Below are positions 4,081 to 35,405 of a DNA stretch of 45,830 bases, one piece after another; the first letter of the stretch is position 1; the number at the start of each line of letters is the position of its first letter. The notes below the pieces were generated by a model, which worked only from the letters and a program-made list of their open reading frames with translations, made no database searches and was not told the origin of the DNA. The stretch covers positions 1 to 45,830 of the forward strand of contig JBAQUF010000046.1 in assembly GCA_049297375.1 (NCBI GenBank). Direction: 5' to 3'. Source of the stretch: Patescibacteria group bacterium. Lineage in GTDB: Bacteria > Patescibacteriota > WWE3 > UBA101185 > UBA10185. Both the position numbers and the translations under genes were made by a program.

Positions 4081-4302
4081 ATGAAAGTATTTCCTACGGG
4101 AAAAGATGCAGCCCTATATAAACAGTTAATAATCGGGAGTGTAATGATTGGTGTTGGTAAAGTTTTAAATGATCTTTATCCATCAGCATCTTTTATATTT
4201 GGATTCATGTGCATTGTTGGAGGAGTGATTTATTTATTAAGTAAAGTATTTGGAAAAAAGAAAACGGTTTTACATAAAGACAACCAAACTATCCTAAAAT
4301 GA
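4081..4302 (+). CDS. small membrane protein (hypothetical)
   Basis: 73 aa with two hydrophobic segments. AGGAGG lies 10 nt upstream. Its TGA stop overlaps the next ATG (ATGA). Confidence 0.5.
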   Translation: MKVFPTGKDAALYKQLIIGSVMIGVGKVLNDLYPSASFIFGFMCIVGGVIYLLSKVFGKKKTVLHKDNQTILK

Positions 4303-5243
4303 CCAATACATTGTTAGATAGATTTAAAGGCTGCTTGATCGGCTTAGCTGTAGGCGACTACTTAGGCTTGCCTATAGAGTTTTGTAAGGCATCCCAGGTT
4401 AAGAACTTCTATCCAAATGGGTTAGAGCCTAGAGCATGCACTAGGGGCAATTCCAGCTATCCGGCAGGTTTTTACACAGATGATACCGCTTTAACAATTT
4501 GTTTAGCGGAATCACTTATTGAAAATGGGTTTGATGTTAAGGATCAATTTCTGCGATATAAGAAGTGGCTAATGGAGGGCTACGCAACGCCGTTTAACGA
4601 CAACGCATATGGTGTGGGTCAAAACACTCTAAGGCAATTACTTACTGCAGATCCGGATAATCTTCCAACAGAGATGAAGAATAACGAGAAACAAGGTGGA
4701 AACGGTGCCTTGATGAAATGCTCTCCGATTGGATTAAGATACTACAAAGATGAAAAAGAGTTGGTGGAAAAGACAATTGCCTCCACAATAATTACACATA
4801 CCAATGAGATCGCTGTTTGGTGCTGTATCGCACATAACCTTTTCATTAGTTATTCCTTGTATGGATATGCTAAAGAAACATTTATTGAAAGGTTCCTATC
4901 CACTTATCAGAATTGCCATGCAAAGCTCCAGGAAGTCTTACAGATGGACTTTAGTACCGTGGACGAGCATTCACTTAGTACATCCGGATATTCGTTAAAT
5001 ACTTTCATTATTTCACTCTATTGCTTCGTAAAAACGGATAACTACAAAGATTGCATAACAAAGGCTATTTTCTTAGGTGGCGATGCGGATACGCAGGGAG
5101 CTGTTGCAGGATCGCTTGCAGGTTGTTACTACGGATATTCAAAGATTCCTAAATCTTTCTTAGTACACCTAATGAAAAAAAGCTATGTTACATCTCTCTC
5201 AGCAAATCTTTGTTCCAGAACCAAGAAAGAACAAGTTAGCTAA
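4299..5243 (+). CDS. ADP-ribosylglycohydrolase family protein (DraG/ARH-like)
   Basis: 314 aa with family signatures: LLDRFKGCLIGLAVGDYLGLPIEF at the N-terminus, FYTDDTALT, and GGDADTQGAVAGSLAGCYYG near the C-terminus. Confidence 0.85.
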   Translation: MTNTLLDRFKGCLIGLAVGDYLGLPIEFCKASQVKNFYPNGLEPRACTRGNSSYPAGFYTDDTALTICLAESLIENGFDVKDQFLRYKKWLMEGYATPFNDNAYGVGQNTLRQLLTADPDNLPTEMKNNEKQGGNGALMKCSPIGLRYYKDEKELVEKTIASTIITHTNEIAVWCCIAHNLFISYSLYGYAKETFIERFLSTYQNCHAKLQEVLQMDFSTVDEHSLSTSGYSLNTFIISLYCFVKTDNYKDCITKAIFLGGDADTQGAVAGSLAGCYYGYSKIPKSFLVHLMKKSYVTSLSANLCSRTKKEQVS

Positions 5244-5526: not shown

Positions 5527-6235
5527 TATCTAATCCTCCTTGTACTTTATTTCCATTACCTGGAACATTAGTACTTAAATCAATATAATTCTGTGCTACT
5601 ACCTGTTTATCAATTTTGACCTGAACCAAAGTTACACTATCAGAAACCTTTGTCTCATCAAGACTTTCTGACATATGTTGTAATAATTTTACTCCCCTAA
5701 AGACTACTGTTCCAAAATCAGTTAATCTGATTTGGTATCTTCCAAGTAATTTGTTTTCTACCCATCCGGTTGGAGGGTCTACTATCCCAAGATCCACCAA
5801 GAAAAACAGGTAATTATAATTAGCTTGAATCTGTTCTTTACTACCGTCTATTGTAAGTCCATTGCATAATGTCGTGTCCTCTAAAAAATTGAAATCAGTG
5901 GAGCAACCTGCATGTAGTTTTTCATGTAAGATATTGGAGAGATCGGGATTATTACTTTGATAAAGTGTAAGATAAAGTATTCCGCCATCTGCAAGGAAAT
6001 AGTCTTTAGTAAAAAAGTTATGTGAAATTCCAAAAGTCTCCAAATGTTTGAAATAGTCAGGTAGGTATATTTTCTGATCACAAACCTTAATATAATTTAG
6101 AAATTTAAAAAATCTTGGAAATTGTTCTGAGTTTGAATACTCTTCCGCCATCCACCCATTTCTCCCTATGAGACTTTGCAAGGTCTTTGAGTCTTCCAGA
6201 TTACTTTGAGTAAGATATATTACCTCTTTACTCAT
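5510..6235 (-). CDS. hypothetical protein (C-terminal STNVPGNGNKVQGG motif)
   Basis: 241 aa. Start overlaps the stop of the 990 aa gene by 8 nt, so the two look translationally coupled. No recognised domain. Confidence 0.55.
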   Translation of the reverse strand: MSKEVIYLTQSNLEDSKTLQSLIGRNGWMAEEYSNSEQFPRFFKFLNYIKVCDQKIYLPDYFKHLETFGISHNFFTKDYFLADGGILYLTLYQSNNPDLSNILHEKLHAGCSTDFNFLEDTTLCNGLTIDGSKEQIQANYNYLFFLVDLGIVDPPTGWVENKLLGRYQIRLTDFGTVVFRGVKLLQHMSESLDETKVSDSVTLVQVKIDKQVVAQNYIDLSTNVPGNGNKVQGGLDNENNR

Positions 6236-9200
6236 TTTGTACCGCCTTTTCTATAGTTAAGGCACCGAACTTGTCTGATAGTCTCACATACACACGCTCA
6301 AATTCGTACCAAAACCATTTAAGTTTTGGATTTTTTTTAATAAGTCTTTTAATATGTCTCTCTGCGGAAAAGTAATAATTAAAATCATATTCTGAAGATA
6401 CCCGTTCCACATACTTTGTATAAATTCTCCAAACATAAGTTATATAATTTAAATTTCCCGAATTATCACTGCCTATGGCAAAATCAAGAAGATCCTGAAA
6501 CCTCTTATAGTATTCGGGACTTAAATCATATAGAGGGTTTGCAAGAGCTGTTTCGGTTAACTCTTCTTCAAAATCCGATACTTCATGAGCAATAAGTGGC
6601 TCTGGGGCTATATATGCTTTAGCTTCAACAACTTTATTTCTCAATTTTTGAAAACGCCATTTAATAGCCTGTGGATCGTTGTAGATTTTAATAAGGCTGG
6701 TGTTCGCAATATCTTTAGCAAATGGAAATTCCATATTTTTAAAAACATCTTGAAAGTATCCTTTACCAACAACTTTAATTGCTCTGTCCAATTCACTTAA
6801 ATTTTCTAATGCCTGTCTTTTGCTGTACTCCTCAATGTCCTTATCCTCTACAAAGGATTTTAGTATTGGAATTGCACCTTGTAGGTAGTTGCCTTTTTCA
6901 TTTTCCAGAGAAATAAAATGGGTAAAACTCCCTGGAATTAAATATCTGGCATCATTGTCTTTATCGGAGTACACACCATAAACAAAAGTTAGTTCACTTT
7001 CTTTTATATCCGTTACAATTTCTAAAATCGTCATGAGATCCTCAGTGAACGCAAAAACTAAAAAGTCTATAAATTTTTGGCGATATTCTGGTAATTTTTC
7101 TGGAAACAACTTCAATCCTAACCTCATAATTGCACCAAAATAGAAATGGACCGAACTTATTGTGTATGGTCCGGATTTACTTTCCGTATTTTGATATTTA
7201 ACTTTGAATTTTTTAGGATCAATCAGGTCAAGGTTACTTTCAATTGCGAGTTTCATTAACCTTTCTGTGTCTTCAGGCTGAATTACATCTTTAAGGTCGG
7301 ACTCGTTCCTTAGATAATAATCAAATACTTCAGGTTGATATTTTCCTTGACCTGGTTCAAGTAACCTCTTAAATTCCTCATATTTTTTAGTTTTGTTGCT
7401 CTCAAAAGGACTATTAGTAACTTGTGGAACAACCTTTGCAGGCTCCAGAAGAGAGTCCTTTATGGCTTTTTCATATAGAGAAATATCGTTGACCCTCCAT
7501 CTATAGTTCCTTAGAATCATTTCAAACACATGTTGCCCATCCTTAGGCAGTTTTAATATCTCATCATGTATACCTTTCAAGTTATTTTCACTCACTAACC
7601 AAACTAAAATTTCCTCATATGTGTCCCAAACCGCCCAAACATTCTCATCCTTTCCCATATTATTTTTTGCTGCCTTAATAAGTTCTTTCCAAAAGTCAGG
7701 GTCTGCTTCGGCAATCATCAGTGTTATTGATTCTATTAAGTACGATTTTTCAATATGGTAAACATTTCTTAGCTTTGCAATAGCAAATACTACCTGCTTA
7801 AGTAATGTAAGAGTGGGGGTAGCATCTGTTTGTAACGTTTTTTTTATGTTTTCAATGAGTCGTTGGTCACCTTTTTCATCCTCCCCATTGAAGATTGATT
7901 CTTTGTCAATTAACCGCTTTAAAAAATTTGTATCCTTTGAGGATTTTTCTAATAAATACTTGATCGCTTCAGGGGATGTGATTTCATAAAGTCCATGACG
8001 GGCATAAATATCCATACCTTGTTTTATGGCTTCTATGAGGTAATCTATCGTTTTAAAACTATTTGGTGCTGAATCATAACAAAATTGAATAAAGGCTTCT
8101 CTAACTAAGGAGTCCTTATTTATAAAATTTACGGAAAGCTCTTCAACCAGAACTGCATCCTTATAAAAGGTTAATGCTGATAAACAGTGTCGCTGTAAAA
8201 CTCCATTACCATCTTGGGATTTTGCATACTCAACCATTCTTGTTTTCCAGAAAGTCTTTTCTGCATTACTAAGTAAATCTGGTTGCTCTTCCAGTATATT
8301 TCCGATTATTGATATTACATTGCCTCTATTAGTGTATGTTTTTTCTGGCGTGTCTTGTTCTTCAATATCTTTTTTCAAGGATGTAAGTGCTGTTTTTGTA
8401 GCAATTTTACCTAAACCGGTTCTTGCCCAAACGGGAAACCAGATTCCTTTGGATCCATAGGTTTTATACACTAACTTGAATACTTTCAGTTTCGTTTCCT
8501 CTGACTCTAAAGGAACATTTGTAAGGTATTCAGCCAAGTCCTCAGTAAGAGACCTCTGATGTTTCTGCAAAAATTCTACACACCAACTCGTTATTGTATT
8601 TCGTTTGTTGCTTAAGAAGAGGAAGTATAATACTCCAAACCAGGATTGTTTAAGCATCGGAATACCTTTTTGCTTGAAAACAGCATATTTCTCATAATCT
8701 TCTATAATGCTTGAAGAACCTAATAACTTTTCGGCTACTAAGAACTCAGAAAGTCGGTGATGTTTCCAACCCACATATTTCTTTTTAGTTTTGTCATCGG
8801 TTAAAATTTCCATTAACCCTTTATCCGTCAAATATGCTTTCGTGAAGGGATATTTTTTATTTAGTAATATACTGTCAAATATGCTTTCTTCTATCTGATT
8901 GGCATGGATCAATTCATATATAAAGGCAAGTGGTATCAACTCTTTGAAGTTATTTCCATACAGTTTTTGAAACAAATAGGTATAAAAAACGGGTAGCTTA
9001 AATTCTAAATAATTTGTTTGTTCAAGGTATTCAATAAATATATCTAGATATGGTTTGTAGGATATAAGGCTGTTATACACATCCTTAAACCAAAAAGCTC
9101 TAAGTATCTCATTACTGAGGCTTTCTGAGACCCCCTTTTCTAAAAGGATACTTCTAATTTCCGAATTATCTAAATAATTTTCTTTCGTAAAAATTCCCAT
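6228..9200 (-). CDS. large all-alpha/helical-repeat protein with a STAND (NACHT-type) winged-helix-like signature but no P-loop NTPase domain
   Basis: 990 aa uninterrupted ORF. Residues ~125-160 (DKGLMEIL...YVGWKHHRLSEFLVAEKLL) resemble the GLL...F-x-H-x-S-F-Q-E-[FY]-L-A-A motif that follows NACHT NTPase domains. The rest looks like HEAT/TPR-type helical repeats. There is no proper Walker A. Confidence 0.55.
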   Translation of the reverse strand: MGIFTKENYLDNSEIRSILLEKGVSESLSNEILRAFWFKDVYNSLISYKPYLDIFIEYLEQTNYLEFKLPVFYTYLFQKLYGNNFKELIPLAFIYELIHANQIEESIFDSILLNKKYPFTKAYLTDKGLMEILTDDKTKKKYVGWKHHRLSEFLVAEKLLGSSSIIEDYEKYAVFKQKGIPMLKQSWFGVLYFLFLSNKRNTITSWCVEFLQKHQRSLTEDLAEYLTNVPLESEETKLKVFKLVYKTYGSKGIWFPVWARTGLGKIATKTALTSLKKDIEEQDTPEKTYTNRGNVISIIGNILEEQPDLLSNAEKTFWKTRMVEYAKSQDGNGVLQRHCLSALTFYKDAVLVEELSVNFINKDSLVREAFIQFCYDSAPNSFKTIDYLIEAIKQGMDIYARHGLYEITSPEAIKYLLEKSSKDTNFLKRLIDKESIFNGEDEKGDQRLIENIKKTLQTDATPTLTLLKQVVFAIAKLRNVYHIEKSYLIESITLMIAEADPDFWKELIKAAKNNMGKDENVWAVWDTYEEILVWLVSENNLKGIHDEILKLPKDGQHVFEMILRNYRWRVNDISLYEKAIKDSLLEPAKVVPQVTNSPFESNKTKKYEEFKRLLEPGQGKYQPEVFDYYLRNESDLKDVIQPEDTERLMKLAIESNLDLIDPKKFKVKYQNTESKSGPYTISSVHFYFGAIMRLGLKLFPEKLPEYRQKFIDFLVFAFTEDLMTILEIVTDIKESELTFVYGVYSDKDNDARYLIPGSFTHFISLENEKGNYLQGAIPILKSFVEDKDIEEYSKRQALENLSELDRAIKVVGKGYFQDVFKNMEFPFAKDIANTSLIKIYNDPQAIKWRFQKLRNKVVEAKAYIAPEPLIAHEVSDFEEELTETALANPLYDLSPEYYKRFQDLLDFAIGSDNSGNLNYITYVWRIYTKYVERVSSEYDFNYYFSAERHIKRLIKKNPKLKWFWYEFERVYVRLSDKFGALTIEKAVQNE

Positions 9201-9354: not shown

Positions 9355-10821
9355 ATGTTTGAACAAGCTTTAAAAAATATAGATGATGCACTGCATAGAG
9401 ATGCCGGTTCTGCAACGGAACTGGATTACATAGAACAGACTTCCTGGATTCTGTTTCTTAAATACTTGAATGACCTCGAAAAAGATAAAGATACTGAGGC
9501 GAAGTTAGCAAATAGAAACTATCAACATATTCTTGATCCGAAGTATCGTTGGGACACATGGGCATGTCCTAGAAACCCAGACGGTACGATAAATCATAAC
9601 AAAGCCCTATCGGGTGACGATCTAAAAGATTTCGTAGATGGCGAGCTGTTTCCATATCTTAAAAAATTTAAATACTCCGCAGAAAACGCTGACACAATTG
9701 AGTATAAGGTAGGAGAAATCTTTAGCGAGTTGAAAAACAAAATCCAAACCGGTTACACACTACGAAGTATTTTGGATATTGTGGATAGTTTAGAGTTTAG
9801 AACTGACGCAGAAAAGCACGAGCTTTCCCATTTGTATGAAAGCAAACTGCAGAATATGGGTAATGCTGGTAGAAATGGTGGGGAGTATTACACGCCAAGA
9901 GCTTTAATTCGCACAGTAATTAAGGTTGTAGATCCAAAAATAGGGCAAACAATTTACGACGGTGCCTTAGGATCAGCTGGATTTCTAGTAGAATCCTTTA
10001 ATTATCTTACACAAGAAAAAGAAAAACTTTCACCTAAAGATTGGGAAACGCTTCAAAAGAAAACGTTTTATGGTAAGGAAATTAAATCTCTCGCATACAT
10101 TATTGGTGTAATGAACATGATTCTGCATGGAATTGAAGCTCCAAACATTATTCATACAAATACTCTAGCTCAAAATATCTCTGACATCCAGGAAAAGGAT
10201 CGTTACGACATTGTTCTTACAAACCCACCTTTTGGTGCTGGTATTAGAAAAGAAATTCAACAAAACTTTCCTATTAAAACAGGTGAAACAGCCTATCTAT
10301 TTTTACAGCATTTTATAAAAATTCTTAAAGCCGGTGGTAAGGCGGGTTTAGTTATTAAGAATACATTTCTTTCAAACACCGACAATGCGTCTGTATCATT
10401 AAGGAAACACTTACTTGAGACATGCAACCTCCATACAGTTCTTGATTTACCTGGTGGTGTATTTACCGGAGCTGGCGTTAAAACGGTAATTCTATTTTTT
10501 GATAAAGGTGTTTCTACTAAAAAAATATGGTTTTATCAATTAAATTTGGATAGAAACCTAGGGAAAACTAATTCTTTAAATGAAAAAGATCTAAATGATT
10601 TTGTAGAGTTACAAAAGACAAAAGCTGCTACTAAGAACTCTTGGTCAATAGATATTAAGGATATTAACCAAAAAACCTTTGATCTGTCTGTAAAAAATCC
10701 TAATGTTGAGGAAGCTGTAGCCTTGCGGGAACCTCTGGACATAATCAATTCTATTAGAGATCTTGATAAACAGAGTAATGAAATTTTGAATATACTATAC
10801 GAAAGAATCAATGAAAAGTAA
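9355..10821 (+). CDS. hsdM: type I restriction-modification system, DNA methyltransferase subunit M
   Basis: 488 aa with the HsdM N-terminal domain (LHRDAG...EQTSWILFLKYL), AdoMet motif IYDGALGSAGFLV and catalytic VLTNPPFG. Confidence 0.95.
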   Translation: MFEQALKNIDDALHRDAGSATELDYIEQTSWILFLKYLNDLEKDKDTEAKLANRNYQHILDPKYRWDTWACPRNPDGTINHNKALSGDDLKDFVDGELFPYLKKFKYSAENADTIEYKVGEIFSELKNKIQTGYTLRSILDIVDSLEFRTDAEKHELSHLYESKLQNMGNAGRNGGEYYTPRALIRTVIKVVDPKIGQTIYDGALGSAGFLVESFNYLTQEKEKLSPKDWETLQKKTFYGKEIKSLAYIIGVMNMILHGIEAPNIIHTNTLAQNISDIQEKDRYDIVLTNPPFGAGIRKEIQQNFPIKTGETAYLFLQHFIKILKAGGKAGLVIKNTFLSNTDNASVSLRKHLLETCNLHTVLDLPGGVFTGAGVKTVILFFDKGVSTKKIWFYQLNLDRNLGKTNSLNEKDLNDFVELQKTKAATKNSWSIDIKDINQKTFDLSVKNPNVEEAVALREPLDIINSIRDLDKQSNEILNILYERINEK

Positions 10822-12001
10822 TTGGGAAATAAAAAAGCTTTCCGATGTATGTACAATAGTAAATGGCGGTACACCAGACACTGCAGTAAAACGATATTGG
10901 GGAGATCCACTTTTATGGATTACACCCAAGGACATGGGAAAATCAGAGCAAATCTTTGTGGATGATACTGCAAGAAAAATAACTATGGAGGGTCTAAAGA
11001 ATTCTTCCGCCAAATTATTACCAGTAAATTCCGTTATATTATCTTCACGGGCACCAATAGGTCATCTTGCGATCAACACCAAAGAAATTGCTACAAATCA
11101 AGGATGCAAAGGGCTGGTTCCACATAAGGAGCTTGATACTTTTTATCTTTATTACTTTTTGAAAAATTCAGTAGGGTTGTTGAATGAGTTGGGTAGTGGC
11201 ACTACTTTTAAAGAACTTTCTGGTACTAAATTATCTACTGTAGAAATTCCTTTACCAGATAGAGCAGAACAACTGAGAATTGTTACAAAAGTTGGAGAGA
11301 TTTTTGAAAATGCTGACAAGGAAAAAAGAATCGCAGAAATAAATTTAGAAAACATAAAAGAACTTTACCGCAATTACTCACAAACTGTATTTGAGCATAC
11401 CGGTGACAATTGGGAAACTAAGAGATTAAAAGAAGTGTGTGAAAAAATTACAGACGGGACACATCAGACCCCGAGTTATTATGAGAACGGTTATATTTTT
11501 CTCTCATCTAGAAACGTAACCAGTGGCAAAGTAAATTGGGATAATGTTAAATATATTGATGAAAAGCAACATACCGAAATGCACAAACGAGTTTCACCAA
11601 GGATCGGAGATATATTACTAGCCAAAAACGGCACTACAGGTGTAGGAGCTCTTGTAGATAGAGATGTTAGCTTTGATATATACGTAAGTCTTGCCCTACT
11701 AAGAGTTACAAATGATATAACTCCAGAATATCTTTTGTATTTTGTAAATTCTCCCTTTGCAAAAAAGCAATTTAATAAAAGACTAAAAGGTTCGGGAGTA
11801 CCGAATCTTCATTTACAAGAAATAAAAGAGGTCGTAATTTCTTTTCCTAAGTCAAAGCAAGAACAAAATACCACTGTTTTAAGATTAAAGGGGTTTTTAG
11901 AACAAAAACAAAGTCTAGAGAGGATTTATCAACAAAAGATACAACATTTAGAAGAACTTAAAAAATCAGTACTTAATAAAGCCTTTATTGGAGAGCTATA
12001 A
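10811..12001 (+). CDS. hsdS: type I restriction-modification system, specificity subunit S
   Basis: 396 aa with two target-recognition halves (each W..K.L.dv........G.TP) separated by conserved coiled-coil spacers. Overlaps hsdM by 11 nt. Confidence 0.9.
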   Translation: MKSNWEIKKLSDVCTIVNGGTPDTAVKRYWGDPLLWITPKDMGKSEQIFVDDTARKITMEGLKNSSAKLLPVNSVILSSRAPIGHLAINTKEIATNQGCKGLVPHKELDTFYLYYFLKNSVGLLNELGSGTTFKELSGTKLSTVEIPLPDRAEQLRIVTKVGEIFENADKEKRIAEINLENIKELYRNYSQTVFEHTGDNWETKRLKEVCEKITDGTHQTPSYYENGYIFLSSRNVTSGKVNWDNVKYIDEKQHTEMHKRVSPRIGDILLAKNGTTGVGALVDRDVSFDIYVSLALLRVTNDITPEYLLYFVNSPFAKKQFNKRLKGSGVPNLHLQEIKEVVISFPKSKQEQNTTVLRLKGFLEQKQSLERIYQQKIQHLEELKKSVLNKAFIGEL

Positions 12002-12008
12002 TAAATAT

Positions 12009-14318
12009 ATGAATGAAGCCGAAACAAGAGCCGAATACATTGATCCAAAACTTGTTGAAAGTGGCTGGGGAGTAGTAGAAGACTCCAGGATACTAAGAGA
12101 ATACAGGTTTACAGATGGTAGAATTCAGGTTGGTGGCACAAGAGCAAAGCCGGAAATTGCAGACTACATACTGCAATATAAAAATATAAAACTTGCCGTA
12201 ATTGAGGCAAAACAGTTAGATTTACCTCCAACTGAGGGTGTTACCCAAGCTAAAATATACGCACATAAACTTTGTATTGATTACACCTATTCCACTAACG
12301 GTAAAAGAATCTATCAAGTATGTATGAAAACGGGTAAGGAGGAGTATATAGATAAGTATCCGACTCCGGAAGAACTATGGAATGCAACATTTTCTGATCA
12401 GAATGATTGGAAAGAAAAGTTCAACGGCGTTCCCTTTGAAAATGTTAACGGTACTAAAAGTCTTCGCTATTACCAGGAAATTGCAGTTAATAGAACAATG
12501 GATTCAATCGCTGAGAACAAACAGAGAATTCTTTTAACATTAGCTACTGGTACTGGTAAAACTTTTATCGCTTTTCAAATAGCTTGGAAGTTATTTAAAA
12601 CACGATGGAATTTAAAAAGAGATGGTGCAAGACAACCAAGAATCCTATTCCTAGCAGATAGAAACATATTAGCTGACCAGGCATATAACGCTTTTTCTGC
12701 ATTCCAAGAAGACGCCTTAATTCGTATATCACCTTTAGATATTAGAAAAAAGGGCACAGTACCGACAAATGGGAGTGTGTTTTTCACTATTTTCCAAACA
12801 TTTATGAGTGGTCCTAATAACACCCCGTACTATGGTGACTATCCCAAGGATTTCTTTGACTTTATTATTATTGATGAATGTCACCGTGGTGGTGCAAATG
12901 ATGAGAGTAACTGGCGAGATATTATGGAATACTTTTCTCCCGCAGTTCAGTTAGGCTTAACGGCAACTCCAAAGAGGAAAGATAATGTGGATACTTACAG
13001 ATATTTCGGAGAAACTGTATACACCTACTCACTTAAAGAGGGAATTCAGGATGGTTTTTTAACCCCATTTAAAGTAAAAAGGGTAAAGACTACCATGGAT
13101 GATTATGTTTATACGGCTGACGATGATGTTGTTGAGGGTGAAGTTGAGCAAGGAAAAGTATATGTAGAATCTGATTTCAACAGAATTATTGAAATAATGG
13201 AGCGTGAAAAAAAGAGAGTCGCTGTCTTGTTAGACGAAATAGACCAGAAAGATAAAACAATTGTATTTTGTGCTTCCCAGGCTCACGCACTTGCAATCAG
13301 AGATCTAATCAACCAGATGAAAGATAGTAAAGATCCTAACTATTGTGTTCGTGTAACAGCAAATGACGGTTTGAGAGGTGAACAGTATCTTAGGGAATTC
13401 CAGGACAACGAAAAAACTATACCAACAATACTTACTACTTCACAGAAACTATCCACTGGCGTTGATGCTAGAAATATACGAAACATAGTCCTTATGAGAC
13501 CTATCAACTCAATGATTGAGTTTAAACAGATTGTAGGGCGTGGTACGAGGTTATTTGAGGGTAAAGAGTACTTCACTATAGTTGATTTTGTTGATGCCTC
13601 TCAAAAGTTTTCTGATACAGAGTGGGATGGGGAACCTATTGATGAGTATATTCCACCTGAAAATAAAACACCTAAAGTGCATGATGGTCCTACAGATATT
13701 ATCTATGAACCTACTCCAACGGAACCTAAAGAACCGAAAAAAATGGTTAGAATAAAACTTAGAGATGGTAAGGAAAGAAAAATCCAACACATGGTTTCAA
13801 CTTCATTTTGGAGTTCTGACGGAAAGCCTATCTCATCCGAGGAATTCATAAAGAGCATCTATGGTAAATTACCGGACTTTTTTAAAGACGAGCGGGAGTT
13901 AAGAAAAATATGGTCCAGTCCTGATACAAGAAAAGCGTTTCTAAATAAGTTAGCTGAAAACGGTTACGGTGTGGACGAGCTTACTTCTCTACAGAAATTA
14001 GTGGACGCAGAAAACAGCGATTTATTTGATGTGCTTTCCTACATATCATTTGCAATTGAACCATTGGAGAGATTGGAAAGAGCAAATAATAGTAAACCTG
14101 TTGCTTTTAAGAATTTGGATATAGACCAAAAGGAATTTTTGGAATTTGTACTTTCAAAGTATGTTGAAAATGGATTTGAAGAGCTTGATGAAGAGAAGTT
14201 ACCTGTGTTACTAAATCTCAAATACCAAGCAATCGCAGATGCAGTGAAAATACTTGGCGGTGTTGAGAGAATAAGAGACACATTCCTTGGATTCCAAAAG
14301 TGCCTTTACTCTGTCTAA
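12009..14318 (+). CDS. hsdR: type I restriction enzyme, endonuclease/helicase subunit R
   Basis: MNEAETRAEYIDPKL is the canonical HsdR N-terminus, so the ATG at 12009 is preferred over the track's TTG at 11988. SF2 motifs LATGTGKT and IIIDECHRG are present. The C-terminus resembles the EcoEI R C-terminal domain. Confidence 0.95.
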   Translation: MNEAETRAEYIDPKLVESGWGVVEDSRILREYRFTDGRIQVGGTRAKPEIADYILQYKNIKLAVIEAKQLDLPPTEGVTQAKIYAHKLCIDYTYSTNGKRIYQVCMKTGKEEYIDKYPTPEELWNATFSDQNDWKEKFNGVPFENVNGTKSLRYYQEIAVNRTMDSIAENKQRILLTLATGTGKTFIAFQIAWKLFKTRWNLKRDGARQPRILFLADRNILADQAYNAFSAFQEDALIRISPLDIRKKGTVPTNGSVFFTIFQTFMSGPNNTPYYGDYPKDFFDFIIIDECHRGGANDESNWRDIMEYFSPAVQLGLTATPKRKDNVDTYRYFGETVYTYSLKEGIQDGFLTPFKVKRVKTTMDDYVYTADDDVVEGEVEQGKVYVESDFNRIIEIMEREKKRVAVLLDEIDQKDKTIVFCASQAHALAIRDLINQMKDSKDPNYCVRVTANDGLRGEQYLREFQDNEKTIPTILTTSQKLSTGVDARNIRNIVLMRPINSMIEFKQIVGRGTRLFEGKEYFTIVDFVDASQKFSDTEWDGEPIDEYIPPENKTPKVHDGPTDIIYEPTPTEPKEPKKMVRIKLRDGKERKIQHMVSTSFWSSDGKPISSEEFIKSIYGKLPDFFKDERELRKIWSSPDTRKAFLNKLAENGYGVDELTSLQKLVDAENSDLFDVLSYISFAIEPLERLERANNSKPVAFKNLDIDQKEFLEFVLSKYVENGFEELDEEKLPVLLNLKYQAIADAVKILGGVERIRDTFLGFQKCLYSV

Positions 14319-27145: not shown

Positions 27146-29394
<2,249 letters not shown>

Positions 29395-29459
29395 AGATAT
29401 TAGACTAATACTAGACGAATAATAGACAAATGTCAATTAGTTTAAACTGGAAAAAATCC

Positions 29460-29530: not shown

Positions 29531-29540
29531 ATCCCCAAGT

Positions 29541-29600
29541 TTTTAAAAACTTACAGGATGTGAGTGTTGGCACTATTTCTAGTTTTCACTCACATCCCAA
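29541..29600 (-). terminator. hairpin/terminator element copy A (downstream of the 219 aa gene)
   Basis: Minus strand GGGATGTGAGTG-N20-CACTCACATCC has a perfect 11 bp stem (29556-29566 / 29587-29597). It is followed by TGTAAGTTTTTAAAA and is about 85% identical to copy C. Confidence 0.7.
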
Positions 29601-29621
29601 TATACTTAGACTTATACTACC

Positions 29622-30275
29622 CTAGTAAAGCCCACAATACCCAAGTTCCCTTACCCGAATGTGAATGGGCATTATGTGCTTCATATAACTTGCCACAGCA
29701 TCTTCTACATTCCGATACTTGTTGGCACCAGGGTTCCGTCTATGATAGGTGATGTTATCCCGAAGGTCTTCCTCGGTACTGCCTCCATTTAAAGAAGCCG
29801 CCCACAATACCATTCGTTCCCCTTTGGCAGCGGGTTCTTTGTCATAAGCAGCCTGGCCATCACCACCAGTAAACCGACGGTACAAACTTAGTGCCTCAGA
29901 GCTAGGCTGCCAGCTGTCAGGCATATAAAGGGTTCTGCCACATTTCGTAGCGGAAAACCACTCTCCCTCTTCTTTAAGAAGAATTTCATCCTGATCAGGA
30001 TGGCCTATCAAGGCAATGACCGTCCTACCCCCTACCTTAACAATGTTGTAGGGAACTGATGGATTCCTAAAGTCCAATCCTGTTTTGTAATGCAGGACTG
30101 GGCCACCTGGAATCTGAAAATAATGCCATCCGTTCCTGTTTACCGGACAGTCCTTAAGAAACTCTATTTGATCGAAATAGAGTTCCGGCCAACGACCTCT
30201 CATACAATCGTTGGATGCATCAGAGATAGCGCAGGTCAACGAATCAAAACTTGGAGCAGTTTTTGACTTTGCCAT
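29622..30275 (-). CDS. hypothetical protein (island gene 4)
   Basis: G+C-rich ORF. AAGGAGGT lies 7 nt upstream of the ATG at 30275 (MAKSKTAPS...). The track's ATG at 30281 sits too close to the SD. No recognised domain. Confidence 0.6.
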   Translation of the reverse strand: MAKSKTAPSFDSLTCAISDASNDCMRGRWPELYFDQIEFLKDCPVNRNGWHYFQIPGGPVLHYKTGLDFRNPSVPYNIVKVGGRTVIALIGHPDQDEILLKEEGEWFSATKCGRTLYMPDSWQPSSEALSLYRRFTGGDGQAAYDKEPAAKGERMVLWAASLNGGSTEEDLRDNITYHRRNPGANKYRNVEDAVASYMKHIMPIHIRVRELGYCGLY

Positions 30276-30534
30276 TTTCATACCTCCTTCAGGTTATGAC
30301 TTCCCGCAGGCTGGCGGGTTAAATTAAAGGATTTCGTGACAATTACATCACAATCTGTTACACAGAATCTAGCTATAATCGGCTAGAAAATCCCCTGCCC
30401 AGAGTTGGGCTCTTCTTTCTTCTATAACTCCTCGATCTATATTCTGATCAAGAAGTTATCTAAACCTATGTTAATTTCTTTCGTTTTTCTCCTTTCTATT
30501 TTTGGGTTTTCAGAACTTTTCAATTTTTGAAAAG

Positions 30535-30592
30535 CTCAAAAAACTCGGGAGGTATATTGGCATCTTTCCAGATATTCCAACTACCTCCCAAG
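30535..30592 (-). terminator. hairpin/terminator element copy B (downstream of the Csx3-like gene)
   Basis: Minus strand TAG-TCTCTTGGGAGGTAGTTGG...CCAATATACCTCCC-GAGTTTTTTGAG. It shares the TAGTCTCTTGGGAGGT junction with copy C. Confidence 0.7.
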
Positions 30593-30595
30593 AGA

Positions 30596-30907
30596 CTAAT
30601 CGATCAGATCCCCAGGTAAGTACAGATTACTATGGCAAACTGCCACAACGTATCTTCCTAACTTAGGATCAAACACAGCTACGGTCTCGTACAAGTGTAA
30701 CAGACCGTGGGCAATAGCAACGGCCACAGGCAGGGATGCCGGGCCGTTGATCTTGATGATAGAACCACCAGGCAGTTTGCCAGAGGCCTTCATCCCATCA
30801 ATTCGAACGGTAGCGTCCCGCACAATAACATTATTTTGTGCAGGTTCGTTGGAATTAAATCCAACTGTCAACACATCCCCCTGGATATCAATCAAAAACG
30901 AAGCCAT
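30596..30907 (-). CDS. csx3: Csx3-like protein (CRISPR-associated Csx3/Crn3 cA4 ring-nuclease family)
   Basis: 103 aa. INGPASLPVAVAIAHGLLHLYETVAVFDPKLGRYVVAVCHS parallels, from memory, the Csx3 core (...SGRGPIWLHCFLAHKYHH..FVAVYDPRLGAVVVQSHS of the A. fulgidus protein). Size fits the family. AAGGAG lies 5 nt upstream of the ATG. Confidence 0.72.
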   Translation of the reverse strand: MASFLIDIQGDVLTVGFNSNEPAQNNVIVRDATVRIDGMKASGKLPGGSIIKINGPASLPVAVAIAHGLLHLYETVAVFDPKLGRYVVAVCHSNLYLPGDLID

Positions 30908-30920
30908 TTTTCTCCTTTTT

Positions 30921-31529
30921 CTATTGTTCTTGTTTCTCCAAAGTAACTAGAGAAACAAGATGATTTGCAAGAGCTTTAACCATTGATCGACAGGAATTAT
31001 CCTCACCTCTTTCAAGATGATGAACACTTCCTCGAAGAATACCGTCTGGAGCAACTCCTTCGACTATATCTTCAGTGCCAAAGTAATCAGAAAACACTTC
31101 AGCAACGATCGTAAGCCCTAACTCTGCACAAAACTCACGCCATGGTTCCATTCGCTGGCCCCATGTTTCATCCTTCCAGTTTCCTGCCAGGATTACTGCG
31201 TGAGTGGCGTGCGACATAATCATCCGATTTTCATCGGAGGTTCGCCCGCCTACATCGATAATGGTGAGAGGGGTGGTGGCTTTTTCAACCCACTCAGCCC
31301 GAACTGCGGCAAACTCAGGAGTGAATTTGGACTTGTAGTCCGTTTTCAACTGCTGGGCAAGCTCTGGATCGTTCTGAGCGGCTTCACTAAACCACGCCCC
31401 TTCACCATCAGGACACGCCGTTATAACATACGGGTACGGCGCACCCTCAATCCGTTTGATTGCCTGCTTCAACCCCTCTCGCAGGCAGGACTTCCCTGAA
31501 TGGGGAGGTCCACAAAGAACAATTTTCAC
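30921..31529 (-). CDS. small P-loop NTPase (the ATPase module found fused to Csx3 in other genomes)
   Basis: 202 aa with a GTG start after GGAG. Walker A is LCGPPHSGKS and a Walker-B-like LTIIDVGG is present. The stop is 13 nt upstream of the Csx3-like start. Confidence 0.75.
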   Translation of the reverse strand: MKIVLCGPPHSGKSCLREGLKQAIKRIEGAPYPYVITACPDGEGAWFSEAAQNDPELAQQLKTDYKSKFTPEFAAVRAEWVEKATTPLTIIDVGGRTSDENRMIMSHATHAVILAGNWKDETWGQRMEPWREFCAELGLTIVAEVFSDYFGTEDIVEGVAPDGILRGSVHHLERGEDNSCRSMVKALANHLVSLVTLEKQEQ

Positions 31530-31650
31530 CTCTACTCCTATAGGATTAACTCAATTCTGCCTATTATAGATAACGACTTGAGCTTTGATTAGCCGCCTCT
31601 CAAAAAGAGGTAATAGCGCTTAAAACAGCACTAGTATCTTTCTTTGAGAA

Positions 31651-31707
31651 AAATAAAAACTTGCAGGAGGTGAGTTGGCACTATTTTAGTTTCCAATCAC
31701 CTCCCAA
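31651..31707 (-). terminator. hairpin/terminator element copy C (downstream of the 672 aa gene)
   Basis: Minus strand TAG-TCTCTTGGGAGGTGATTGG-N16-CCAACTCACCTCC-TGCAAGTTTTTATTTTT. The stem is 8+4 bp with one bulge. Confidence 0.7.
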
Positions 31708-31711
31708 GAGA

Positions 31712-33730
31712 CTAAACCCCAAATGAGCCAGACTCTATGCCCAGTTCCTCTTCAATACTTCTTACAGCATTGATTTGGTCTGGGGTGCATCCTTCAACAG
31801 GCATTTTAACAACCTCATATAGTCCGTTGAACATTCTTAAGGCGAGCTCTTTCTCGCTCACCTTCTCCCAATAGTAATGCCCGTCAGACTTATGTCTGGG
31901 AACATCATCACTATCTTTTTCACGAAGATGCCCATCGGGTTCAATTACCCACCCATCTCCTTGATTAGTTTTACCCCCTCGACGATGCCATACCTCGAAG
32001 TGAACCAAAAGTTCACCTCTATCTTGCTTTTCTTTCAGAACCTTTAAGTTGCTTTCGATGTCCTGAAATCTGGCAAGAGTCTTCTTAGCATCCCGAACCC
32101 AGCTCTCCAGGTTGGGCCATCCCTCTGTAGAGGGCATTATGTCAAGACCACTCTCTTGAGCGATCTCTTCAATTTTCCCCTTTGATATTTCATCAGCCAC
32201 AGAAAACCAAGGCTGGCTTACCAATTGGGAAACCTTGTTTTTTAAGACTTCTGCTTCCCCTCTCAGGGCGGTCCTTTGTTCCAGCTCACAACCCTCTAAG
32301 TGATAAGCTTGTTTTTCTTTTTCAAGCCTAACAAACAACCTCCCACGAGGTTCGACATTATGCTGATCCTGGCCATTCCAGCCAAGATTCAACACGAATG
32401 GATCGGTCGAAATAACTTCGCCAGTTTCCTCATCACTCAAGACAAGATTGCCTTTGCAATCTTGATAAGTACCAACTAAAGTGACAATTCTACCAATCCA
32501 TTCCTTCGGAACATGACCCCAAGGTGCGGTGCCTTTGGCCACATAGAATGCAGGATCGCGCTTGGCATCAGCCATCTTCCAAGTCACCCAAATTTCGGTC
32601 ATTAATTTACCATCTTTGACGAACAGGGCGTAAGGACGTATCTTGTATCCACCTTCTGGGCGGATGAACAAAACATCACCTTCATGAAGAATCACCATAA
32701 CTTCTGGCCAATCGTAGATCATGCCAGCAGCTCCCTCCGCACCTCGCCCTTCGGCGAAGATGATAGGATCACCTCGCCAAACTAAAACCTCGGGATTCGA
32801 CCCGCGGGTGTAAACCCAAGAGGTCGAGACCTTGACCAGGAATCCTGCTTCAGCCTTTGGTGCCTGAGCCAATCCGTACTTTCGCTTTATCGTTTCCTGC
32901 TCCCAGGAGTAACGAGCCGGGATGGTCTTTTCTTCCAAAACCACTACGGCAGCCTTGGTCAAACGGCCTTCAGCTTCAAAGCCCACAAGCGGCAGCTCCA
33001 ACAAACTGCGACCACGTCCACTTTGACCCAACGACACAACCATTCCGGTAGCGCCGTTTGTCAATGCGATACCTTCTTCCACGCGGCCACCTTGCCAGGT
33101 ATAAGCCAGAAGTTGGTTGGAGAGGAAGTTGAGGTTTGGGGCTGTGGTTGGAGAATTAGCCATTGCAGCTTCTGCTACTTTCAGCGCCTGAATGTTTTCA
33201 TAATCTTTCCAGGTTGCCGTCTGCAGACCAGTTGTGTCATACCAAAGTGCACGAGGTTCAAACTTACAACCACCAGAGAGGATAACCTTGATAACATCAC
33301 CAGGCTTCATGATAACAAGACCATCAGTCCAGCTACCAATCCGGCCAGCGTCGCCATAAGCGCCCCATCCTTCAATTATCTTCTCAGGTTTGCCAGCAAT
33401 CGTTTGCCAGCGACCTGAAGTGTTCCTGGTGTACGTGCCTTCGGTGTTGATGCGCACAATCACCCTCTCACTAACTTCGCTCGATCGGGTAAGAACCCAG
33501 AACTTGATTTCAGGTTTACCGTTGCGAGCGGGAATCGTGATCTGCTGCAACTCGGCATCCACGACACGACCATTAGCAGCAACTTCTGGGGGATTCCGAC
33601 GGGAAAAACCGACTTTCTCATAGCGGCGACCCCGACCAGCCTCACCCAAGAAAATCACCTTCCCCAGCTTCTCATCCTGAGTAAGTGGGAGACCACCAAC
33701 CAACGAACCAGAAAAATTGTATGTTTTCAT
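31712..33730 (-). CDS. large protein of unknown function with a tandemly duplicated ~160-residue N-terminal domain (island gene 1)
   Basis: 672 aa G+C-rich ORF with AGAGGA 5 nt upstream of the ATG. Residues ~25-178 and ~231-388 align: LG[EQ][AS]GRGR, TIPAR, EG.GA.G.AG.I..W....VI...GDV, GG.K..P.AL. Coiled-coil-like middle region. No known catalytic motif recognised. Confidence 0.75.
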   Translation of the reverse strand: MKTYNFSGSLVGGLPLTQDEKLGKVIFLGEAGRGRRYEKVGFSRRNPPEVAANGRVVDAELQQITIPARNGKPEIKFWVLTRSSEVSERVIVRINTEGTYTRNTSGRWQTIAGKPEKIIEGWGAYGDAGRIGSWTDGLVIMKPGDVIKVILSGGCKFEPRALWYDTTGLQTATWKDYENIQALKVAEAAMANSPTTAPNLNFLSNQLLAYTWQGGRVEEGIALTNGATGMVVSLGQSGRGRSLLELPLVGFEAEGRLTKAAVVVLEEKTIPARYSWEQETIKRKYGLAQAPKAEAGFLVKVSTSWVYTRGSNPEVLVWRGDPIIFAEGRGAEGAAGMIYDWPEVMVILHEGDVLFIRPEGGYKIRPYALFVKDGKLMTEIWVTWKMADAKRDPAFYVAKGTAPWGHVPKEWIGRIVTLVGTYQDCKGNLVLSDEETGEVISTDPFVLNLGWNGQDQHNVEPRGRLFVRLEKEKQAYHLEGCELEQRTALRGEAEVLKNKVSQLVSQPWFSVADEISKGKIEEIAQESGLDIMPSTEGWPNLESWVRDAKKTLARFQDIESNLKVLKEKQDRGELLVHFEVWHRRGGKTNQGDGWVIEPDGHLREKDSDDVPRHKSDGHYYWEKVSEKELALRMFNGLYEVVKMPVEGCTPDQINAVRSIEEELGIESGSFGV

Positions 33731-34357: not shown

Positions 34358-34388
34358 CTAAAAAAGCTCGGTTTCTTTAACCCGAGCT
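34358..34388 (-). terminator. hairpin plus T-run inside the ORF-free gap
   Basis: AGCTCGG (34365-34371) pairs with CCGAGCT (34382-34388). On the minus strand it is followed by TTTTTAG. The plus-strand T-tract is weaker. Confidence 0.45.
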
Positions 34389-34502
34389 ATACTTTTAGCT
34401 TTAAACCTTGTTAACTAAGGTTCGGGTAGGAACAAGCTTTAATCATTATATTTTAAATGTCCTCTCTAACTTTCTAAATATATTGTATCTCATAGTTTAA
34501 TA

Positions 34503-34611
34503 TTTGTCAAGTAGTCATTAACATTGTCATTAAGTATTTAACAACCTATATTTCTTGATCGATAAATATATCATACTATAGGTACATATGTTTGTCAAGT
34601 AGTTATTGACA
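34503..34611 (+). promoter_or_regulatory. two copies of TTTGTCAAGTAGT[CT]ATT[AG]ACA, 88 bp apart, upstream of the TrmB-like gene (promoter/operator candidates)
   Basis: Copies at 34503-34523 and 34591-34611 are 19/21 identical. Copy 2 contains TTGACA, followed 14 nt later by TATAAT (34625-34630), which lies 10 nt from the ATG. Confidence 0.45.
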
Positions 34612-34640: not shown

Positions 34641-35405
34641 ATGTATAAGAATGTTCTTGAAGACTCAGGATTAAAATCCGGAGAAGCAGAAATTTATGAC
34701 TTACTACTCCAGTATGGAGACTCCCCTGCTTCAGAATTGACTTCTAAAACAAATCTTAAAAGAGGAATGATCTATAAATTTTTAGATGACTTAAAAAAGA
34801 AAGCTCTAGTATCTACATACTCCAAAAACAAGAAAACGTATTTTAGAGCTGAGCATCCCCACAAGTTAATGCAAAAAATAGAAGGAACATTACAAGACTT
34901 TCAATCTCAGAAAATAGCTCTTGAAGCGATACTTCCTGAACTTGCAGAAAAGTATAATCAAAAACAACTCAGACCAACGGTTGTTAGCTACGAAGGAATA
35001 CGTGGAATTAGAAAGGTATTCAAAGACATATATGCACCTAAAGATGAACCTGTGTATGGATGCGTAGATGTAGAATCTTCTGAAAAAGCTGTTTCTAATG
35101 AAGTAGTAAAAGACTTAATACCTTTAAGAATCAGAAACAACGTAAAGGCAATTAGCTTTATTGGCAAATCTAGACTAGGAGAGCAAATTCATGCTAAGGA
35201 TAAAGAATCTTTAAGAGAGAGTATCCTCTTAGATAAAAGGAGGTATCCAATACCTGCAGAAATTGATGTTTATGAAGATAAGGTAGCACTATTAAGCTTT
35301 GAAAAAGGAAACTTTTCTGGGATATTGATTCAAAACAAGGATATTGCCACATCCTTAAAAACAATATTTAAATTAGCTTTTAGAAAATCTGAGGTATGGG
35401 ATTAG
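34641..35405 (+). CDS. TrmB-family transcriptional regulator
   Basis: 254 aa. The N-terminal wHTH LEDSGLKSGEAEIYDLLLQYGDSPASELTSKTNLKRGMIYKFLDDLKKKALV is typical of TrmB. Confidence 0.85.
   Translation: MYKNVLEDSGLKSGEAEIYDLLLQYGDSPASELTSKTNLKRGMIYKFLDDLKKKALVSTYSKNKKTYFRAEHPHKLMQKIEGTLQDFQSQKIALEAILPELAEKYNQKQLRPTVVSYEGIRGIRKVFKDIYAPKDEPVYGCVDVESSEKAVSNEVVKDLIPLRIRNNVKAISFIGKSRLGEQIHAKDKESLRESILLDKRRYPIPAEIDVYEDKVALLSFEKGNFSGILIQNKDIATSLKTIFKLAFRKSEVWD

Follow-up and report, generated by a model that had tools for sequence, protein, structure and literature searches.

Csx3-AAA and AAA-Csx3, the family to which Slr7080 of Synechocystis belongs, form a known module that is uncharacterised in the literature, and the Csx3-NTPase combination is one of the type III CRISPR accessory modules without a determined function. 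Csx3-AAA is a single polypeptide with the Csx3 domain at the N-terminus and is found in type III CRISPR loci. In the Csx3 (Crn3) protein of Archaeoglobus fulgidus (AfCsx3), the residues H57, H60, H80, R71 and the catalytic D69 are absolutely conserved, and S44, G45, R46, and I49 contact cyclic tetra-adenylate (cA4) (PMC7371418). Here, a 45.8-kb stretch of DNA from a Patescibacteria group bacterium (the whole contig JBAQUF010000046.1, 45,830 nucleotides (nt), referred to below as the window) was analysed. Two adjacent genes on its minus strand, at 30,596-31,529, encode a P-loop nucleoside triphosphatase (NTPase) of 202 amino acids (aa) and a Csx3-like protein of 103 aa. The original prediction, made from the letters of the sequence, had taken them for an orphan ring nuclease and its AAA ATPase partner, split from a fusion known in cyanobacteria. 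Our results showed that the pair is the type III CRISPR accessory module Csx3-AAA/AAA-Csx3 (Slr7080 family), encoded as two polypeptides.

A Csx3-NTPase module encoded by two genes

Residues 1-106 of the Scytonema fusion protein P0221 were 45% identical to the 103-aa protein, and the remainder of the fusion was 65% identical to the 202-aa protein. The PADLOC profile Csx3-AAA (PDLC01045) matched the 103-aa protein at profile positions 1-99 (E 3.4e-23) and the 202-aa protein at positions 109-285 of 286 (E 6.6e-66). Further PADLOC matches were found to the Csx3(CARF) profile, over the full length of the 103-aa protein (E 6.1e-13), and to PDLC01515 (E 2.4e-59) and C3a67 'AAA-Csx3' (E 3.3e-33) for the 202-aa protein. 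The P-loop protein was 43% identical to the copy on pSYSA (by coordinates Slr7080), and an NCBI sequence identical to the 103-aa protein already carries the name "CRISPR-associated protein Csx3". The proposed relation to the cyanobacterial fusion held for both domains, but the gene order is the reverse of that in the closest fusions, where Csx3 is N-terminal.

In the direction of transcription the NTPase gene comes first and is followed by csx3 after 13 nt, as originally noted. A stop codon and this spacer part the two open reading frames (ORFs), and the Csx3 and NTPase domains are not one polypeptide. The two genes form one separate, self-contained operon because a hairpin with a U-run lies directly after the csx3 stop and a related hairpin terminates the 672-aa gene upstream. 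The hairpin after csx3, which is likely the intrinsic terminator of the two-gene operon, contains a 25-nt direct repeat with a copy at 31691-31715. A TATAAT hexamer upstream of the NTPase gene, found by eye and not called in the promoter scan, may be the -10 element of the promoter of the pair.

Both ORFs are genuine genes and not chance ORFs. The evidence consisted of the numbers of homologues (321 for the 103-aa protein and more than 1,110 for the 202-aa protein), the ratios of nonsynonymous to synonymous substitution (dN/dS) of 0.09-0.23 against relatives, which indicated purifying selection, and two other sequencing runs from which the gene order 672-202-103-219-Fic was assembled identically and independently. 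These two runs also ruled out that the island carrying the pair is a misassembled chimera.

Predicted fold and active site of the Csx3-like protein

The Csx3-like core motif quoted in the original prediction, INGPASLPVAVAIAHGLLHLYETVAVFDPKLGRYVVAVCHS, is present at residues 53-93 of the 103-aa protein, and the family of this protein is tight in length (about 101-104 aa). Sequence matches to solved Csx3 structures were marginal, and a structural search was needed for the fold assignment. The proteins of the pair were modelled with AlphaFold2 as monomers. The Csx3 model, built from an alignment of 54 sequences, had a predicted local distance difference test score (pLDDT) of 84.6. In the Foldseek search against the PDB, the top 11 matches were all AfCsx3 (6yud, 3wzg, and 3wzh), with E values down to 6e-5, a template modelling (TM) score of about 0.59, and a probability of 1.00; the alignments covered the full length of the protein in about 105 columns with 22-24% identity. 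The cA4-bound CARF domain of Cat1 and STAS proteins came after them. The Csx3 fold, alpha/beta and about 100 aa long, is distantly CARF/STAS-like. As judged from the model, and in agreement with the PADLOC profiles, the 103-aa protein has the Csx3/Crn3 fold and belongs to the Csx3 superfamily. Its naming as Csx3 holds at this level but not at the level of the Crn3 equivalog: by its sequence the protein is placed in a distinct subfamily, the Csx3-AAA subfamily, because the curated Csx3 models of Pfam and NCBIfam (TIGR02579) scored below their cut-offs.

Residues were mapped to AfCsx3 by HMMER alignment combined with published residue roles (PMC7371418). H67, H71, D80, and H92 of the 103-aa protein aligned to H57, H60/61, D69, and H80 of AfCsx3, with a spacing between H67 and H71 one residue longer than that between H57 and H60. 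AfCsx3 R71 was replaced by an invariant lysine, K82. The residues H67, H71, D80, K82, and H92 were invariant across 54 homologues, and the full His/His/Asp/Lys/His set was kept in 67 of the 68 stand-alone Csx3 genes that adjoined a P-loop gene. The residues S44, G45, R46, and I49 of AfCsx3 corresponded to K52, I53, N54, and A57 in an N-terminal alignment obtained from HMMER alone, with no structural superposition. Given an invariant predicted catalytic set and replaced cA4-contacting residues, the catalytic machinery looks intact and the ligand pocket appears to differ from that of Crn3.

The partner is a SIMIBI-like P-loop NTPase

The motifs quoted for the 202-aa protein, LCGPPHSGKS (residues 5-14) and LTIIDVGG (residues 88-95), were both present; they contain a Walker A motif (GPPHSGKS) and a Walker B/DxxG motif (TIIDVGG) in which no Glu follows the Asp. 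The protein matched no Pfam or NCBIfam family and had no significant match to a Pfam AAA model. Single-sequence and profile searches against PDB sequences gave matches confined to the P-loop motif itself, and no sequence relative was found among the solved proteins. The homologues were 55-80% identical, and some of them were cyanobacterial proteins of about 305 aa. The AlphaFold2 model had a pLDDT of 90.4, and its Foldseek neighbours were ParA/MinD, GPN-loop GTPase, Get3, SRP/FtsY, and small kinases, with TM scores of 0.35-0.62. An ASCE core, a Walker B motif of the hhhhDE type, and a match to an AAA model, which characterise AAA+ proteins, were all missing from the 202-aa protein, and its description as an AAA ATPase had to be abandoned. 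Instead, the protein is a P-loop NTPase of the kinase/GTPase division (SIMIBI-like), because its Walker B motif lacks the Glu and its structural neighbours are SIMIBI NTPases and small kinases. About 46 positions were invariant in the family alignment, which suggests an enzyme with a specific substrate.

The pair recurs outside CRISPR-Cas loci

A scan of one genome per species (185,579 genomes) revealed 170 relatives, of which the best 80 were kept and pooled with metagenomic loci to give 91 loci. The P-loop and Csx3 genes were adjacent in 87 of these 91, in both orders and either fused or split, and the four exceptions ended at a contig edge. After duplicates were removed, 82 distinct loci were left, 36 with the NTPase first and 46 with Csx3 first, and their neighbours were classified with hidden Markov models built from recurrent neighbours that Pfam identified as Cas10, RAMP, Card1, and WYL proteins. 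The Csx3-first loci, fused or adjacent, were nearly all cyanobacterial, and these relatives adjoined Cas10, RAMP proteins, Card1/Can2, and WYL proteins: Cas10 or RAMP genes were present in 29 loci, CARF/WYL genes in 38, a CRISPR array in 14, TrmB in 4, and bpMoxR with vWA in 1. Separate genes were the rule in the NTPase-first loci, which came mostly from Patescibacteria (Saccharibacteria, Paceibacterota, Gracilibacteria, and others) and also from Poribacteria, Entotheonella, and Omnitrophica. Here Cas10 or RAMP genes were present in 3 loci (Entotheonella and two Poribacteria loci), CARF/WYL genes in 2, a CRISPR array in 2, TrmB in 14, and bpMoxR with vWA in 7.

The CRISPR-free split pairing recurred in about thirty other species, mostly Patescibacteria, and the orphan (cas-free) arrangement was shown to be common in this group. 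Two near-complete Patescibacteria genomes assembled as single contigs, JBAZBY010000001.1 (1.03 Mb) and CAZQXB010000001.1 (0.91 Mb), also have the pair. In a subset of the cas-free loci, the 141 ORFs located up to about 5-6 kb from the pair were compared with Pfam; TrmB, AAA_5/bpMoxR, GNAT, RuvB, DEAD, and vWA were the recurrent families, with TrmB at the top (10 of the 141 ORFs) and no CARF, SAVED, or Cas10 among the 25 most frequent families listed. In the window itself, to which the CRISPR-Cas negatives apply, neither a cas gene nor a CRISPR array was found in 45.8 kb, as the original prediction had stated.

The context of the relatives offered further observations on the two forms of Csx3. 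Many cyanobacterial loci contained an intact stand-alone Csx3, then a Csx3-NTPase fusion, and then a Card1/Can2-like effector. In Nostoc sp. XA010 (locus L018, 9303-11891), a stand-alone intact Csx3 and a fused copy without the histidines lay beside a Card1-like effector. In 15 of 30 fused Csx3 domains of the Csx3-first loci, one or both histidines were replaced by Gln, Asn, Glu, or Asp. The comparison of these sequences suggests a division of labour between nuclease and sensor, with the 103-aa protein probably of the nuclease type. In seven loci (L002 8475-14773; L012 5133-10830; L015, L054, L067, L076, and L083), small ORFs together with genes for a bpMoxR-type AAA protein, a vWA protein, and a large protein containing a Zn ribbon came directly after the pair. 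These GC-rich cassettes look like a MoxR-vWA ternary conflict system.

The GC-rich island and its neighbours

The pair lies between a TrmB regulator gene and a SoFic-like Fic gene, in an island of distinct composition (Table 1). The four island genes (29.6-33.8 kb) had a GC content of 0.47-0.49 and a GC content at third codon positions (GC3) of 0.42-0.48, compared with 0.29-0.37 and 0.18-0.29 for the flanking genes; the atypical composition agreed with the original view of the island as foreign. The same contrast recurred in most Patescibacteria loci and extended to co-oriented downstream cargo. In several of them (L001, L005, L012, L041, L056, L066, L084, and others), the GC content of the pair and cargo was 0.1-0.25 above that of the genome, reaching 0.65 against 0.38 in L056. 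No integrase, no tRNA, and no convincing att-like or flanking repeats were found at the island borders, scans of the window revealed no tRNA and no Rfam match, and none of the four island proteins had a match in PHROGs. The analysis points to a compositionally foreign yet long-resident variable region and not to a recent mobile element, because related genomes have it in the same position between TrmB and YchF and because its synonymous divergence, measured against the nearest relatives, was 0.9 or saturated. The island has not drifted towards the base composition of the host. These Patescibacteria genomes seem to have in common a hypervariable island beside TrmB whose GC content stays high.

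Table 1. Features of the gene pair and its surroundings in the window.
Feature	Position	Strand	Remarks
csx3 gene, 103 aa	30596-30907	minus	ATG start
P-loop NTPase gene, 202 aa	30921-31529	minus	GTG start
Intergenic spacer, 13 nt	30908-30920	minus	AGGAG ribosome-binding site, read from the sequence
Hairpin and U-run of csx3, likely terminator	30537-30599 (about 30530-30600)	minus	directly 3' of the csx3 stop; fold -27.4 kcal/mol, z = -4.95
Region upstream of the NTPase gene	31530-31711	minus	terminator hairpin of the 672-aa gene (31640-31715; fold -22.2 kcal/mol, z = -3.0); putative -10 hexamer TATAAT (31568-31563); AGGAG site of the NTPase gene
GC-rich island	29560-33850	genes all minus	GC 0.42-0.49 vs 0.30-0.37 in the flanks (composition profile); 219-aa, Csx3, P-loop, and 672-aa genes
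672-aa protein	31712-33730	minus	locus tag WAX66_02290; two copies of an undescribed domain of about 180 aa, residues 1-182 and 208-389
219-aa protein	29622-30281	minus	nearly orphan; own terminator hairpin 29535-29615, fold -25.3 kcal/mol, z = -4.3
Fic-domain protein	28327-29436	minus	PADLOC SoFic E 3e-46, residues 26-367 vs profile 25-350 of 361; GC 0.29, host-like
TrmB-family regulator	34641-35405	plus	divergent from the island; present in 14/36 NTPase-first loci; BLAST matches

The 672-aa and 219-aa neighbours had been put forward as the sensor or effector of a signalling system around the pair. The 672-aa protein had no Pfam, NCBIfam, PADLOC, or PHROGs match; its family comprised 61 homologues, and those with a source name were all from Patescibacteria lineages. 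The homologues in loci L092-L095, which represent three distinct contexts, were without the pair. The 219-aa protein had no family match in the same four collections, and its relatives made up 6 clusters among 1.84 billion representatives. Both genes have terminators of their own. The sensor/effector idea is unsupported as stated because neither neighbour is a conserved partner; the 672-aa protein is variable island cargo and not an obligate partner. An assignment of the 219-aa protein as a nucleotidyltransferase was dropped, since the sole hint was a Pfam match with E 0.27 and there were almost no relatives.

The domain of about 180 aa in the 672-aa protein is marked by the motifs GRGRR and GDAGR.G, and in six further loci it makes up shorter proteins encoded next to the pair (L005 9391-9909; L009 8572-9462; L057 11910-12521; L074 12597-13439; L085 1773-2390; L088 3136-3942). 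Residues 565-660 of the 672-aa protein resembled large proteins that follow MoxR-vWA cassettes (L058 16051-18117, E 2e-10). A homologue of the 672-aa protein with 70% identity, in L092, adjoined a primase, a serine recombinase, and TraX.

Three related long hairpins with U-runs lie directly after the stops of the 219-aa, csx3, and 672-aa genes (z -3.0 to -5.0). Two of the three have a common loop, AAATAGTGCCAAC, with compensatory changes between their stems, GGGAGGTGA/TCACCTCC in one and GGGATGTGAGTG/CACTCACATCC in the other. The loop motif was absent at the equivalent position of the other related loci, and the hairpins are local to this island because the loop sequence is not common to other loci.

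In Patescibacteria, the pair had TrmB as a neighbour more often than any other protein. The minus strand of the stretch that separates trmB from the island (34360-34611) has two promoters of the sigma-70 type that come close to the consensus, TTGACA-17-TATGAT and TTGACA-17-TACAAT. Each is contained in a 24-nt direct repeat, with a spacing of 88 nt, and some 110 nt further downstream, near 34362-34400, there is a hairpin with a U-run. By their sequence, these elements could be operator sites of TrmB, a short transcript, or both. The Fic protein on the other side of the island matched SoFic, a single-gene anti-phage defence system, over its full length. The rest of the window contained housekeeping genes (HisRS, CysRS, a release factor, DnaX, RecR, YchF, and Tgt). 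Genes of the defence or mobile-element type were located upstream at 387-2456, 4299-5243, 6228-9200, and 9355-14318: a Prim-Pol/PriCT protein, an ADP-ribosylglycohydrolase, a 990-aa ORF without a Pfam match, and a complete type I restriction-modification system (HsdM, HsdS, and HsdR).

Discussion

We propose that the module formed by this split Csx3-NTPase operon acts on an oligoadenylate-type signal, by removing or by sensing it, and does not depend on a local Cas10, a reading that, taken as a whole, has a probability of roughly 0.6. By analogy with AfCsx3, the Csx3 protein would form dimers, bind a cyclic or short linear oligoadenylate (cA4 by the same analogy) between stacked dimers, and cleave this ligand in a Mn2+-dependent reaction through the His-His-Asp-His set. 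The NTPase would act in complex with Csx3, since elsewhere the two are found as fusions of either order and hardly ever apart. Ligand-induced stacking of Csx3 might switch the NTPase or kinase activity of this partner, or the partner might act on the nucleotide product. The closest fused relatives stand in a type III context, which provides the link to oligoadenylate signalling, and the split CRISPR-free form argues for a role of the module that needs no local Cas10.

Several results weigh against this proposal. The 103-aa protein scored 19.7 bits with PF09620 (Cas_csx3), below the gathering cut-off of 21 and in the C-terminal half only, and 19.8 bits with the NCBIfam equivalog TIGR02579, whose cut-off is 55.4; its matches to PDB sequences were weak, with E 0.17 in phmmer and E 0.024 with the family profile, both to A. 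fulgidus Csx3. Because the cA4-contacting side chains S44, R46, and R71 of AfCsx3 correspond in the alignment to K52, N54, and K82, the ligand may be other than cA4. The window has no visible source of cyclic oligoadenylate, and no type III CRISPR-Cas genes were encoded together with the pair within the 45.8-kb contig, the sole part of this genome that was covered, a scope that itself counts against the proposal. Literature on the module terms the partner domain "of unknown function", and deletion of csx3 (slr7080) in Synechocystis left plasmid interference unaffected according to PMC9676260, which cites Shah et al.

Other explanations differ in what the pair would serve. It may be the nucleotide-sensing core of a CRISPR-independent conflict system whose effectors are the variable island cargo, namely MoxR-vWA with a large protein, proteins with the domain of about 180 aa including the 672-aa protein, or DEAD helicases. 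The pair was directly followed by bpMoxR, vWA, and the large protein on the same strand in 7 of the 36 NTPase-first loci, 7 distinct loci, the window among them, had a co-oriented gene for a protein with the domain of about 180 aa no more than about 2 kb away, the GC content of the cargo was elevated like that of the pair, and a SoFic-like gene flanks the island. However, no single neighbour was conserved, most NTPase-first loci had neither type of cargo, the three inspected contexts of 672-aa homologues were without the pair, and each unit in the window has its own terminator. No nucleotide cyclase was found either: the sole GGDD match fell at the very C-terminal end of a single cargo protein, and a Cas10-like GGDD in the large cargo proteins was rejected because this match is a C-terminal tail and not a palm domain. 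We consider such a conflict system unlikely. A little less probable still is its more specific form, in which Patescibacteria would have a conflict system based on nucleotide signalling without Cas10, with the NTPase-Csx3 pair as its sensor core, wired to interchangeable cargo (MoxR-vWA and the proteins with the domain of about 180 aa) in the hypervariable GC-rich island next to TrmB. If this were true, Csx3-type signalling would exist outside CRISPR, and this could be the ancestral state, with the module taken over later by type III systems.

A function in RNA-end processing or repair without relation to signalling, in which Csx3 would be a Mn2+-dependent exonuclease for 3' oligo(A) and the P-loop protein an enzyme resembling polynucleotide or nucleotide kinases, is quite doubtful. 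The first description of AfCsx3 was that of a deadenylating exoribonuclease (Yan et al. 2015, cited in PMC7371418), but its affinity for cA4 is about 100-fold higher than that for RNA. The P-loop model also resembled shikimate, dephospho-CoA, and adenylate kinases, and the sequence reads as having two features of P-loop kinases, a loop with an Arg (ERGE...R) and, following strand 2, an invariant Asp (PDGEG); against this, the closest relatives lie in type III loci beside cA4-dependent effectors. Conservation was unusually high for a defence gene, although the sporadic distribution (170 hits among 185,579 species genomes) was unlike that of a housekeeping function, and the gene is compositionally foreign. 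More improbable is the suggestion of the original prediction that the pair is an anti-defence module on a mobile element, destroying the cA4 of a host type III or other oligoadenylate defence. The GC-atypical island, the precedent of viral ring nucleases such as AcrIII-1, and the mobile-element genes beside the 672-aa homologue in L092 would fit such a role. However, neither a collection of 50,697 phage genomes nor the 2.9 million contigs of IMG/VR contained a relative, and the plasmid matches were all cyanobacterial; those in Synechocystis were to pSYSA, which carries the Synechocystis CRISPR loci (PMC9676260). Further points against it are that the island borders have no integrase, tRNA, or att repeats, that related genomes share the location between TrmB and YchF, and that synonymous divergence is saturated; the last two indicate long residence. 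To our knowledge, moreover, Patescibacteria generally lack CRISPR-Cas and largely lack its type III form. That no cas genes lie nearby would also be expected of a decaying remnant of a lost CRISPR locus with no current function. Neither ORF is disrupted, ribosome-binding sites and a terminator are in place, the dN/dS values were 0.09-0.23, and the catalytic and Walker residues were invariant over dozens of CRISPR-free loci; this explanation is already disfavoured and very improbable.

The compact, split, CRISPR-free form of the module, which strong purifying selection maintains in dozens of bacteria with small genomes, is experimentally simpler than the fusions, as it consists of two small soluble proteins. 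If the pair degrades cA4, Csx3 would join the ring-nuclease families with orphan members, and the question would arise of the source of the signal in episymbiotic bacteria.

Comparison with known systems

Degradation of cA4 outside a CRISPR locus, the activity originally proposed for the pair, is known from the viral ring nucleases AcrIII-1/Crn2. These have an unrelated fold (DUF1874) and are virus-borne, whereas the family of the pair had no viral member in the collections searched. The orphan Csx15 of Pseudomonas fluorescens (PfCsx15) is likewise a CRISPR-type protein, in its case cA4-binding, away from a CRISPR locus, and about 25% of csx15 genes are orphans (PMC13148439). Csx15 belongs to another fold family (CARF-like) and has no NTPase partner, and PfCsx15 sequesters cA4 without cleaving it. 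Crn3/Csx3 of A. fulgidus (AF_1864; PDB 6YUD, 3WZI) is similar to the 103-aa protein in predicted fold, in the equivalents of H57, H60, D69, and H80, and in size (about 100 aa). It differs by an identity of 22-24%, by R71 in place of Lys and S44/G45/R46 in place of K/I/N, and by the lack of an invariant Q-N-D motif that the 103-aa protein has in addition; the 103-aa protein is obligately paired with a P-loop protein and AfCsx3 is not.

The fused modules are the closest systems. AAA-Csx3 (cluster 67 of Shah et al. 2018, C3a67, e.g. Caur_2269) has the domain order NTPase then Csx3 in common with the pair, but its profile matched the 202-aa protein more weakly than Csx3-AAA did and did not match the 103-aa protein at E < 0.01. 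Csx3-AAA (cluster 35 of Shah et al. 2018, e.g. CYB_0599; Synechocystis Slr7080; 'Csx3-prime' of Athukoralage et al. 2020) shares both domains with the pair, and one profile matches both proteins. Unlike this single polypeptide of type III loci, the pair consists of two genes in the reverse order without cas context, and the 103-aa protein retains the histidines H71 and H92, of which one or both equivalents are lost in 15 of 30 fused domains. No mention of Csx3 together with Patescibacteria was found in the literature search. The module itself is known; what is new here is its recurrent, split, CRISPR-free variant in Patescibacteria and the reclassification of the partner domain.

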